Part shown: positions 42,001 to 45,000 of the stretch, in pieces | Layout of the letters: each line of letters starts with the position of its first letter | How positions within the stretch are numbered: position 1 is the first letter of the stretch | Assembly: GCA_963790305.1 (NCBI GenBank) | Contig: CAWBOC010000009.1 | Location: 800,001-864,000, forward strand | DNA length: 64,000 nucleotides | Direction: 5' to 3' | From: an uncultured Gemmatimonadaceae bacterium | GTDB lineage: Bacteria; Gemmatimonadota; Gemmatimonadetes; Gemmatimonadales; Gemmatimonadaceae | Program-made: the position numbers

Positions 42001-45000
42001 GATCGCGTGCCTTCCCGCGGTCGTCGGGCATTGGCGCCGTCCGGGTGGCGGCGTCCAGCTGTCCACCAGCGCGAACTTCCAGTTCGACAAGAACACGCTC
42101 GAGCGCCCCGACCTCTCACCGCCGGTGCGCACGATCAACATGATCCGGCTCGGAGAGGCGCTGACGACACCGAATGCGGGCGTCGGCGGGCCGCCGGTAC
42201 GGGCGATGGTCGTATACAACTCGAACCCCGCCGCGGTCGCGCCCGATCGCAACGCGGTGATGCGCGGATTCGCGCGCGACGACCTGTTCACGGTGGTGCT
42301 CGACCACTTTCAGACGGACACCGCCGACTGGGCCGACATCGTGTTGCCCGCGACGACGCAGCTCGAGCACTGGGACATTCACTTCGCGTACGGTCACCAC
42401 TACGTCACGCTGAACCGACCGTCGATCGCCCCGCTCGGCGAAGCGAAGCCCAACTCCGAGATCTTCCGCCTGCTCGCCGCACGCATGGGAATGCATCACC
42501 CCGCTCTCCGCGACGACGATCTCACGCTCATCCATCAGGCGATCGAGGGCGCGACACCAGGCGCGTGGAACGCGGAGAAGCTGCGCGGCGTGACGCTCGA
42601 CGAGCTGCTCGAGCGCGGATGGATGCGTCTCAACGTGCCGAAGCCGTACCTGCCATTCGGGAACGGCGAGTTCCTCACGCCCAGCGGCAAGTGCGAGTTC
42701 TATTCGGAGCGGATGAAGGAGATGGGACTCGACCCCCTTCCCTCGTTCACGGCGCCTTACGAGTTCCCGGAGGAGGCTCCGGAGCTCGCGTCACGCTTCC
42801 CGCTCACGTTGATCTCCTCCCCCGCGCACCAGTTCCTGAACTCGACGTTCGTGAACATCGGCGCCCTCCGCCGCGCCGCCCGCGAGCCGGAGCTGATGAT
42901 CCACCCGAGCGACGCCGAGCCGCGCGGCATCGCCACCGGCATGCGTGTGGTGGTGCATAACGATCGCGGCGAGTTCACCGCCGTGGCCCGCGTCGACGAA
43001 TCGGTCCGCGAAACGGTGGTGTGGGCCCCGTCGATCTGGTGGGCGAAGTACGCCGCCGACGGCCAGAACGCGAACGCCACCACTTCCCAGCTCGAGACGG
43101 ACATGGGGCATGGTCCCGTGTTCTACGACAATCTGGTGGAGGTGATGGCGGCGGATTGATGGTGTGCGCCACGGTCTTGGAACCGCAGATTGCCGCAGAT
43201 GGCCGCAGAGACGGTTCCTCCTGGCGATCGAGATCCTTACCGCCACGCTGGCATCACCAGGAAGCTGTTGGATTGCTTCTTTGATGTCTACCACGAGCTT
43301 GGCCTTGGCTTTCTCGAGGCAGTTTATTCCAATGCGTTCGCGATTGCGTTGACGCAAGCCGAAATCTCGTTTCGACGAGAATTCGATGTACCGGTGTTCT
43401 TCCGGGGGATTCCCATAGGCGCCTACAAGGCGGATTTCCTCATCGCCGACGACATCATTGTCGAGTTGAAGGCTGCACGAGCCATCGACCCAGTTCACAT
43501 CGCCCAGCTTGTCAACTACCTGCGTGGTTCCAAGGTCGAGTTGGGGTACATCCTGAATTTCGGTCCAAAGCCGTCATACAAGCGCTTTATTTTCTCCAAC
43601 GCACGCAAGAACAGTTGCGGCCATCTGCGGCCATCTGCGGTTCCATAGCACTGGCGCGAATAAGTACGCCCGGCCATCCTGAGTAACGACTCAAAACGGA
43701 GCAGACGTTGTCGAGCAAGCAGCACCCCACAACACTCGGCGCCCTCAAGCGCTCACCCTACGCCGCACGCGCCAAGCGCACCGTCAAGGACGAGCTGCGC
43801 GAGAATCTTCTCGAGCGGCTGGCGCGCGGCGGGCCGCTGTTCGAGGGCGTCGTTGGCTATGAAGACACCGTTCTTCCGCAGCTGGTCAACGCCATTCTCG
43901 CCAAGCACAATTTCATCCTCCTCGGGCTGCGCGGGCAGGCCAAGTCGCGCATTCTGCGGTCGCTCGTCACGCTGCTCGATGACGCCATTCCCATCGTCGC
44001 CGGGAGCGAGATCAACGACGATCCGTTCGCGCCGATCTCGAAGCAGGCGAGCCAGGTGATCGAGGAGGCGGGAGACGACACGCCCATCGCGTGGATCGGA
44101 CGCGACCAGCGCTACGTCGAGAAGCTCGCTACCCCCGACGTCACCATCGCCGACATCATCGGCGACGTCGATCCCATCAAGGCTGCGCGCGGCGGACATG
44201 TGCTGTCGGACGAGCTCACCATCCACTACGGCATGCTGCCGCGCGCCAATCGCGGCATCTTCGCGCTCAACGAGCTTCCCGATCTCGCCGGCAAGATCCA
44301 GGTGGGATTGTTCAACATCATGCAGGAAGGCGACGTCCAGATCAAAGGCTATCCCATCCGCATCCCGCTCGATGTGCTCCTCTGCTTCACCGCCAACCCC
44401 GAGGATTACACCGCGCGCGGGAAGATCATCACGCCGCTCAAGGATCGCATCGGAAGCGAGATTGCGACGCACTATCCGGAGTCGGTCGAAGTCGGGATGG
44501 AGATCACGCAGCAGGAGGCGTGGACCGCTCGCGGCTCTCTTCCCGTGCGTGTCCCGGACTTCATCGCCGAGGTCGTCGAGCGCGTCGCCTTCGAGGCACG
44601 CACCGACAAGCGCGTCGACAAGCGCTCCGGCGTCTCACAGCGCATGCCGATAACGGTTCTCGAGAGCGTCGTGTCGAACGCCGAGCGGCGCGCCGTCGAG
44701 CGGCGCGAGTGCACGGTCGTGCCGCGCGTGTCGGACATCTACGCGGCGCTGCCGTCGATCACCGGCAAGATCGAGCTCGAGTACGAGGGCGAGCTCATCG
44801 GAGGACAGGTCATCGCGCGTGAGCTGATTCGTCGCGCTGCCGACGCGACGTTCCAGTCGAGAGCAGGCGGCTCCGATACCGACGAGATCGTGATGTGGTT
44901 CGACACGGGGAACGCGCTCGAGGTGCCCGACGACGCCGCCAGCGAGCCGCTGTCGCAGGCCTTCGAGGATGTCCCGACGCTTCTCGATCTCGTGCATGGC

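Follow-up and report, generated by a model that had tools for sequence, protein, structure and literature searches.

The window, by which we mean the whole 64,000-nucleotide stretch of DNA analyzed here from an uncultured Gemmatimonadaceae bacterium, contains a GxxExxY gene that is enclosed by the two inverted arms of a repeat-built hairpin. We propose, with somewhat less than even confidence, that this cassette serves as the master, gene-carrying copy in a system of repeats and nuclease organized like the REP/REPIN-RAYT elements, with an unrelated enzyme whose cutting and mobility we infer. Because the link between gene and repeat is strong and the active site is intact, GxxExxY is a fair candidate for the enzyme that spreads the repeats. 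Many bacteria hold hundreds of intergenic palindromes with no known route of spreading, and the present genome holds about 350 repeat-built hairpins. The gene-repeat link gives GxxExxY, a common family, a candidate substrate (its own arms), a specificity control (the arms of the other clade), and named catalytic residues, so that a single small protein and a handful of oligonucleotides would suffice to test both the function of the family and the spread of the palindromes.

According to passages in PMC8266576 and PMC5581495, REP/REPIN-RAYT systems ("REPtrons," TnpA-REP) combine a palindrome-bordered, low-copy enzyme gene with many gene-less intergenic copies; a genome has several cognate pairs, copies cluster locally around the gene, and retention is mostly vertical. 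In the window system, too, the repeats beside the gene are its cognates and are common in other parts of the genome; the genome also has several gene-arm pairs, copies overall cluster near their master genes, and the gene occupies the same site in 6 of 18 syntenic loci. It differs in its enzyme, which has a PD-(D/E)XK fold instead of being an HUH (Y1) tyrosine transposase, and in its arms, which are tandem 8- to 10-mers forming one long hairpin able to enclose the gene. It also lacks the GTAG tag before the palindrome: GTAG was absent from the 6-mers enriched at the outer ends of the elements. If GxxExxY does mobilize hairpins, it would be a second enzyme solution to the REP/RAYT lifestyle.

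The enclosed gene and its predicted protein

The cassette occupies the gap between an oxidoreductase gene and an AAA+ ATPase gene, with all three genes on the same strand (Table 1). Its left arm begins 7 nt downstream of the oxidoreductase stop codon. Each arm holds three 10-nt units with the core CCGCAGA, and the fixed GGAA outer motif of the family stands upstream of the left-arm units. The open reading frame encodes 152 amino acids when counted from the TTG at 43190; an alternative ATG lies at 43199. Both candidate start codons fall inside the left-arm array, and the right arm contains the last codons and the stop. Folding of the cassette over a 516-nt region gave a z-score of -6.5, and none of 100 shuffles equaled the native fold. 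A scan for sigma-70 promoters and terminators found no site at the window arms, and an Rfam search of the window returned 0 matches. The gene core has a GC content of 0.53 and a GC3 of 0.68, compared with a genome GC content of 0.66 and a median GC3 of 0.80 (fifth percentile, 0.67; the genome GC3 values come from a crude gene caller).

Table 1. Features of the GxxExxY cassette and its surroundings (window coordinates)
Feature	Position	Strand	Remarks
Molybdopterin oxidoreductase, upstream host gene, one edge of insertion site	41069..43159	+	
Left arm of enclosing inverted repeat, 42 nt	43166..43207	+	86% complementary to right arm
Left-arm tandem array, three 10-nt units, core CCGCAGA	43183..43209	+	Period-10 array
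GxxExxY gene (TIGR04256/PF13366 PDDEXK_3), clade B (GxGFLE type)	43190..43648	+	Profile matches
Predicted active-site codons	43316..43519	+	E43 (43316), D82 (43433), E92 (43463), K94 (43469), Q106 (43505), Y110 (43517)
Right arm, inverted copy, 42 nt	43616..43657	-	86% complementary to left arm; tandem units at 43616-43640
AAA+ ATPase, downstream host gene, other edge of insertion site	43708..45180	+	Weak BchI/ChlI-type matches below cutoff
Gene-less CRCRGAG-type hairpin, 103 nt, family of the C5:72 GxxExxY gene	51036..51138	.	

Both profile scores of the open reading frame lie above the curated cutoffs (PF13366, E = 5e-35, 121 bits, cutoff 22; TIGR04256, E = 2e-33, 115 bits, cutoff 35), which places the protein in the GxxExxY/PDDEXK_3 family. 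These two were the only matches in the profile searches, in which no known transposase family was hit. The predicted structure (pLDDT 85.6, with the arm-derived termini not confident) runs through helix 43-56, strands 61-71, 74-85, and 89-94, helix 101-113, and strand 118-123. With this modeled alpha-beta-beta-beta-alpha-beta core and its E, D, and ExK residues, the protein belongs to the PD-(D/E)XK superfamily. The predicted catalytic residues are well kept among 150 listed homologues: E43, D82, and Y110 are present in all 150, E92 and K94 in 148, and Q106 in 147. Purifying selection on the gene is indicated by dN/dS values of about 0.03 to 0.23 in five pairs (rough method).

The best Foldseek matches of the model were Cas4 SSO0001 (E = 4e-4) and Hjc (E = 2e-3), and a wide VIA-align search gave Z scores of up to 7.3 in a tie among restriction-like folds, with no standout. 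Such matches are modest; they fix the fold of the model and leave the activity unnamed. The model resembles Cas4 (SSO0001, 4ic1) and archaeal Hjc (2wcw) in the core fold, the E...D...ExK site, and the QxxxY motif, but the window protein has no Fe-S cysteines in the alignment, shares 16% identity, and had 0 matches in a PDB sequence search. The predicted likeness to Hjc-type junction resolvases is thus one of fold only. PDDEXK_3 is listed as a family of unknown function in a passage of PMC3424549, and the part of 10.1101/2021.01.26.428298 that mentions GxxExxY does so in an unrelated context.

Repeat families and their gene-bearing copies

A census of tandem-repeat hairpins counted 352 in the genome, with unit periods of 7 (183 hairpins), 9 (149), 8 (11), 10 (8), and 11 (1). 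They sort into about ten main families, most of which have one gene-bearing copy; the genome contains four GxxExxY and six four-helix matches. The survey's finding that all four GxxExxY genes lie inside or directly against CRCRGA-type hairpins held at every locus. One is the window gene on contig C9, and the other three are on contig C5. The gene at C5:741837, which has a frameshift near its 5' end, is enclosed by a decayed arm pair that is followed by a full gene-less copy. The gene at C5:638951 has a single left arm upstream and a full hairpin downstream, and the one at C5:72 lies between an arm cut by the contig end and a full hairpin. The four copies are 29 to 50% identical to each other, and each has its own distinct arm family. 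The family of the window gene (CCGCAGATGG) comprises 7 paired elements, 6 of them gene-less, and those of the other three (CACAGAGG, CGCAGAGG, and CGCGGATT) comprise 29, 14, and 9, figures that do not bear out the 20 to 100 gene-less copies previously assigned to the flanks. The earlier genome-wide count of 63 CRCRGA hairpins was closely reproduced by our own patterns, with 60 paired elements (7 + 29 + 14 + 9 + 1). A triplet-shuffled genome gave only 0 to 3 arm matches per family.

The elements follow one plan. Each is an inverted repeat; the arms consist of about three CRCRGA-N units in tandem plus a fixed outer end (GGAA-CC, TA-ACC, or CATCC...GGGA), and the loop contains a short spacer or else a single GxxExxY gene. 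The number of units is steadier in GxxExxY-type arms (standard deviation, 0.13 to 0.55) than in four-helix-type arms (0.62 to 1.12). Copies within 10 kb of their master gene numbered 8, versus 1.5 expected, across ten families and 3, versus 0.23 expected, when only the four GxxExxY families were considered; copies of other families within 10 kb of master genes numbered 12, versus 14 expected. The family of the window gene is small, at 6 gene-less copies, and has no copy within 50 kb of that gene, both of which count against a RAYT-like reading. In the two G-type (CRCRGAG) families, copy-specific changes were mirrored from arm to arm (85 of 174 and 47 of 149; the maxima of 1,000 permutations were 59 and 39). 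In the two T-type (CRCRGAT) families, mirroring was not clearly above chance (7 of 30; 15 of 54, with a permutation maximum of 18), and its failure to exceed chance in the window gene's own family again counts against the RAYT-like reading. A consensus fold of seven G-type copies showed compensatory change in 8 of 44 pairs, with a covariation term that was not favorable.

Four-helix genes occur in similar hairpins; the genes in the sister cassettes of this genome belong to TIGR02436. Two of the six four-helix genes (C9:787730 and C7:228042) lie in 9-mer arms that belong to families of 65 and 39 hairpins. Of the 149 period-9 hairpins, 111 fall into three non-CRCRGA families (65, 39, and 7), whose gene-bearing copies hold four-helix genes (C9:787730, C7:228042, and locus L295 of G003). 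Because four-helix genes sit in 9-mer arms, period fails to separate the GxxExxY and four-helix classes and was ruled out as a class marker; the arm core and the fixed outer end mostly do separate them. Period 7 was found at 23 of 30 and 8 of 19 four-helix loci in two sets, and CRCRGA pairs, previously reported as absent from such loci, were found at 2 of 30 and 1 of 19. In G034 (98% complete), a four-helix gene is enclosed in an expanded CACRGAGG family. The proposed difference in repeat class between the two gene types therefore stands for the arm core and the fixed outer end and falls for the period, and, as G034 shows, it is not absolute.

Since both gene types ride like hairpins, the spread could follow a shared route that needs neither protein as a catalyst. 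The host, or an unseen enzyme acting in trans, would then spread all repeat-built hairpins, and the GxxExxY and four-helix proteins would ride along, each able to replace the other, or would be accessory factors that bind the arms and either confer specificity or shield the copy. We treat this as the main rival because four-helix genes, which have no known nuclease site, occupy hairpins of this kind too, in one case with the same octamer; they also ride the larger families of the genome, so such hairpins can spread without GxxExxY. The common architecture, the presence of about one gene-bearing copy per family, the occurrence of four-helix genes in arms of 8- and 9-mers, with one case of the CACRGAGG octamer, and the replacement of one family by another at a single site all suit a shared route, as does the weak, below-cutoff match of two of the three four-helix proteins tested to the Avd model. 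A mere rider, however, would not need a catalytic site that is kept in 147 to 150 of 150 listed homologues. The clean match between protein clade and arm type and the rarity of fixed-end arm expansions in genomes without GxxExxY (both below) also argue against a shared route, and we consider it unlikely.

We surveyed 121 genomes of the phylum that were at least 90% complete, 41 of them with GxxExxY, using two arm patterns into which the outer end was built. Fifteen or more arm matches were present in 15 of 41 carriers versus 2 of 80 gene-less genomes (16 versus 3 at a threshold of 10 and 13 versus 1 at 20; the thresholds were chosen after the counts were seen, and related genomes are not independent). 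When our own genome and the unpublished G082, one of the 15 expanded carriers, were omitted, 13 of 39 carriers were expanded. Several observations count against the RAYT-like reading. No expansion was seen in 26 of the 41 carriers, and G114 has 15 arm matches and no GxxExxY gene that we could find. G084 has 46 G-type matches, and its sole gene is frameshifted, with a motif and arms that resemble those of the other clade. With a looser pattern applied to 41 relatives, G034 and G036 stood out by having CACRGAG arrays and no GxxExxY gene that we could find. A second unpublished genome, G015, supplies one row in the alignments and tree, is part of the 32-locus test described below, and is among the empty sites; the conclusions are independent of both unpublished genomes.

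Arms and protein clades in other phyla

We assembled 162 homologous loci from three locus searches. The two large searches, selected by protein pattern alone, contributed the best 80 of 597 and the best 80 of 586 confirmed matches, and a single-protein search yielded 2 loci; 161 of the 162 had a profile match and 154 had enough flanking sequence. Among the matches listed, an inverted repeat spanning the gene (score of at least 14) was present at 98 of 154 loci, versus 1 of 283 windows of the same size shifted inside the loci and, at the same score, 5 of 154 swapped pairs. Arms faced inward on both sides of the gene at 76 of the 154 listed loci. A second layout, in which a direct copy of an arm or of a whole hairpin stands on either side of the gene, accounted for 17 of the 154 listed loci versus 0 of 283 shifted windows. 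Phage records contained no GxxExxY match, and plasmid records contained eight, all typed as nonmobilizable and several megabase-sized. Cultured carriers include Gemmatirosa kalamazoonensis and Draconibacterium orientale.

The arm type followed the protein clade. Among the matches listed, clade A (GPGLLES; n = 77) had 63 loci with CRCRGAG-type arms, none with T-type arms, and 14 unlabeled, and clade B (GxGFLE; n = 77), which includes the window gene, had 57 with CRCRGAT-type arms, none with G-type arms, and 20 unlabeled. Unit spacing was 8 to 9 in clade A and mostly 10 in clade B. On a quick tree of 165 rows (150 listed loci and 15 relatives, with 4 rows containing stops excluded), the arm label requires one change and the phylum 66. 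Labeled loci came from at least 18 phyla, one of them archaeal, with many being metagenome-assembled genomes whose names may be wrong. The split between G and T is a single event on the tree, which shows arms and gene traveling together and not repeated coevolution.

Closer to the window, 32 GxxExxY loci (28 from relatives and 4 from our own genome) were compared with 600 random windows. Two CRCRGA units were present at 18 of 32 loci versus 14 of 600 windows, and a wider pattern at 25 of 32 versus 39 of 600, in agreement with the enrichment seen in the survey. The survey's period of 8 to 10 at 32 of 34 relatives' genes did not survive a stricter test, in which 23 of 32 loci had a period of 8 to 10, 1 had a period of 11, and 8 had none. 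Its nomination of GxxExxY as the candidate spreading enzyme is backed by the spanning repeats at 98 of 154 listed loci versus 1 of 283 windows, the clade-specific arms, the occurrence of expansions mostly in carriers, and the intact site. The low GC content of the gene and its high synonymous divergence (see below) would agree with horizontal acquisition, the surrounding arms being due to chance or to ordinary terminators. This reading is set against the controls, namely, 1 of 283 among the matches listed, 14 of 600, 0 to 3 matches in shuffled genomes, and 0 of 100 folding shuffles, and no terminator-like site was seen at the arms. The inverted-arm controls and the clade-to-arm match refute the chance reading, and we regard this explanation as highly improbable.

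Coding does not account for the arms, as the frame continues into the right arm at only 21 of 102 loci; it starts from the left arm at 56 of 99 (both among the matches listed). G-U pairs showed no bias toward the sense strand (62 versus 55 in 81 arm pairs), which fits an action on DNA. A partial parallel at the RNA level is offered by the open reading frame-bearing intervening sequences of 23S rRNA, which encode S23p four-helix proteins (TIGR02436) and are described in a section of PMC4990558 as having the gene in the loop of a long stem and short tandem repeats beside the start codon. In the window cassette, too, the loop of a long stem contains the gene, and tandem repeats lie at its start codon, but the cassette lies between protein genes, encodes a nuclease fold, and has dispersed gene-less copies.

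If the cassette were an RNA-level element of this kind, RNase III would cut the stem from the operon mRNA, rendering the insert harmless, and the protein would act on RNA or its copying. The location between two codirectional genes and the long stem are consistent with this, and in the same section of PMC4990558 the Coxiella intervening sequence combines terminal inverted repeats, tandem heptamers, a four-helix open reading frame, and RNase III cutting. Hairpins of all families also lie near gene 3' ends and are enriched between convergent genes (110 of 352 versus 392 of 1,949 by a crude gene caller). The unbiased G-U pairs, the lack of an Rfam match in the window, and the placement of the cassette outside rRNA nevertheless speak against it, and no linked reverse transcriptase was noticed at the loci inspected, although no search aimed at one was made. 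An RNA-level origin therefore seems improbable to us.

Site turnover and a possible route of spread

We compared the insertion site across 30 loci of the downstream ATPase gene, 18 of which had the oxidoreductase upstream. The GxxExxY gene was present at the site in 6 of the 18 syntenic loci, with CCGCAGA arms in G000, G001, and G020 and CCACGGA arms in G002, G003, and G014; in G007, the copy is cut by the contig end. G004, G005, and G017 have a gene-less hairpin of another family at the site, with a right-arm remnant kept in G004, and 9 of the 18 syntenic loci had no element by eye. Across genera, the gene keeps this position. The tree test did not reject grouping the six site genes as one clade (p-AU = 0.53; 47 rows), which allows an old age for the gene here, with arms that drifted along; nor did it reject a clade of the four site genes from the same genus (p-AU = 0.28). 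Synonymous divergence was 1.6 to 2.1 for the GxxExxY gene versus 0.4 to 0.6 for its neighbor (rough method, near saturation), a value high enough that the gene may have been replaced at the site. When judged by the vertical inheritance typical of REP/RAYT systems, the presence of the gene at 6 of 18 syntenic loci speaks for retention, yet the divergence and the mixing of phyla on the tree do not.

Retention across genera and the unrejected single clade would also be expected of a domesticated caretaker, a protein that resolves or trims cruciforms or stalled structures of long palindromes and is therefore kept by repeat-rich genomes, with the repeats spreading by gene conversion and slippage. 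The resemblance of the fold to Hjc, a junction resolvase, and to nucleases of the Cas4/RecB type, the purifying selection, and the homogenization of arms are in line with such a role. It leaves unexplained the position of the gene within its cognate arms, the presence in one genome of four genes that each have an arm family of their own, and the common occurrence of genes without expansions. We find a caretaker role rather improbable.

Turnover was followed at 15 elements of G004 and G008 relative to G000; 6 had no syntenic site and 1 was unaligned. Of the eight aligned syntenic sites, three had the same element (two distinct sites), three had a hairpin of another family, and two had none. The spacers at empty sites were too diverged for the junction to be read and exact element ends to be placed. 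Target duplications of at least 6 nt were seen in 2 of 29 (control, 3.5), 0 of 14, 0 of 9, and 0 of 7 elements of the four CRCRGA families; the ends are fuzzy and the search yielded no clean empty site, so very short duplications are possible. The system resembles miniature inverted-repeat elements and insertion sequences in having short nonautonomous copies alongside a longer form that shares their ends and carries a gene, but it has no target site duplication above the control (again excepting very short ones), and the GxxExxY gene has not been multiplied as near-identical copies.

If the window cassette is a master copy, as we propose, the GxxExxY protein would recognize its own arm units folded as a hairpin or cruciform and would nick or cut there. 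Host repair and recombination could then insert a copy at a different intergenic location, in many cases a hairpin already present there, without target duplication, and one arm may at times be recopied from the other. The gene would rarely move inside a lineage and appears to have crossed phyla together with its arms. At the mRNA level, the stem would mask both the start codon and the stop codon, probably keeping expression low.

A broader proposal, which we consider possible but doubtful, is that these elements make up a new class of bacterial and archaeal mobile DNA. In it, repeat-built hairpins would be mobilized by a stand-alone PD-(D/E)XK enzyme of 130 residues that reads its own 8- to 10-nt units in a clade-specific manner (seventh base G versus T); insertion would cause no target duplication and would often be into hairpins already in place. 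The GxxExxY and four-helix cassettes would then form two branches within a single large superfamily, so far undescribed, and this would explain many orphan intergenic repeat families. If it does mobilize hairpins, GxxExxY would, to our knowledge, be among the smallest DNA-mobilizing enzymes. Our literature search, which covered main texts and few subscription papers, found no account of the link between the GxxExxY gene and repeats. Caulobacterales reportedly have 7-nt "tandem inverted repeats" with associated small genes, which may bear on novelty.

Heptamer repeats of the GGGAATC type in Xanthomonas and Nostoc are described in a section of PMC4692102 as intergenic and tandem and, in Xanthomonas, as often forming inverted pairs (70 to 75 cases). 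That section finds no mobile-element link and names no partner nuclease, and the part of PMC4679880 that deals with heptamer repeats names no partner nuclease either; the period of 7 and, in these accounts, the lack of a named nuclease set such repeats apart from the window system. An apparent joint skipping of positions 43166 to 43623 in one relative's contig was discounted, its short side being 34 letters long with 82% likeness. Hairpins may also be nested: one relative's copy lies inside a 7-mer hairpin, and one such nest is present in G000.

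Repeat hairpins of the window and ORFs lying between arms

Thirteen additional tandem-repeat hairpins, all of the four-helix type (7-mer and 9-mer families), were found within the 64-kb window, one of them immediately 5' of the molybdopterin oxidoreductase gene. Elsewhere in the window, a 133-aa ORF lies between a hairpin of the GAGGTCGTC family and a lone right arm. This ORF had no NCBIfam match and is possibly an ordinary gene caught between arms. Two further loci of the source genome (C13:3551-4237 and C7:189542-189910) have ORFs enclosed by 7-mer arms that are neither four-helix nor GxxExxY genes; by eye, one is lipoprotein-like and the other resembles a small metal-binding protein.

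Repeat hairpins and associated features (window positions unless stated)
Feature	Position	Strand	Remark
Four-helix-type hairpin	6956-7078		
Four-helix-type hairpin	18166-18251		
Four-helix-type hairpin	20751-20869		
Four-helix-type hairpin	23441-23565		
Four-helix-type hairpin	24494-24620		
Four-helix-type hairpin	25672-25765		
Four-helix-type hairpin	26851-26925		
Four-helix-type hairpin	27532-27630		
Four-helix-type hairpin	29000-29145		
Four-helix-type hairpin	31548-31670		
Four-helix-type hairpin	36208-36361		
Four-helix-type hairpin	40937-41050		
Four-helix-type hairpin	58834-58923		
GAGGTCGTC-family hairpin, ORF, lone right arm	46733-47324		
133-aa ORF	46832-47233	minus	cupin-like by eye
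GxxExxY cassette	L354 1290-1950 (G084 C9)		frameshifted; adjoins tRNA-Ile gene

Candidate element ends and insertion sites

The source genome's CACAGAGG, CGCAGAGG and CCGCAGATGG families share a short motif, AACTGC, which is found repeatedly immediately outside their arms and within their spacers. A GCGC(A/C)A-type motif also occurs about 20 nt beyond the arm (16/58 and 5/14 arms, versus 5% at random). This motif may mark the true element end or the target. At two copies (C9:294638-294793 and C5:182618-182772), the copy-specific flanks of 14 to 24 nt beyond the family end themselves form perfect inverted repeats; it looks as though one side had been copied from the opposite one. CRCRGA-type hairpins sit in the loops of 7-mer hairpins at C10:270935-271198 and at a locus from a compared genome (L273), which suggests that hairpins already present serve as insertion sites. 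A roughly 27-nt direct repeat derived from the tRNA-Ile gene borders the GxxExxY cassette of genome G084, as if the cassette had integrated there.

Possible gene decay and relatedness of the families

Partial hits account for four of the six four-helix matches in the source genome (C7:228042, C9:163389, C9:787730 and C10:203511) and for one of its four GxxExxY matches. The master genes (gene-bearing copies of hairpin families) seem to decay frequently, or the hairpins seem to cause sequencing slips. The CRCRGAG unit is nearly a rotation of the four-helix-linked 8- and 9-mers (the source genome's AGAGGCGCT family and the octamers of genomes G034, G026 and G025), and nearly all hairpin families have purine-rich left arms, hinting at a shared ancestry of the repeat families.
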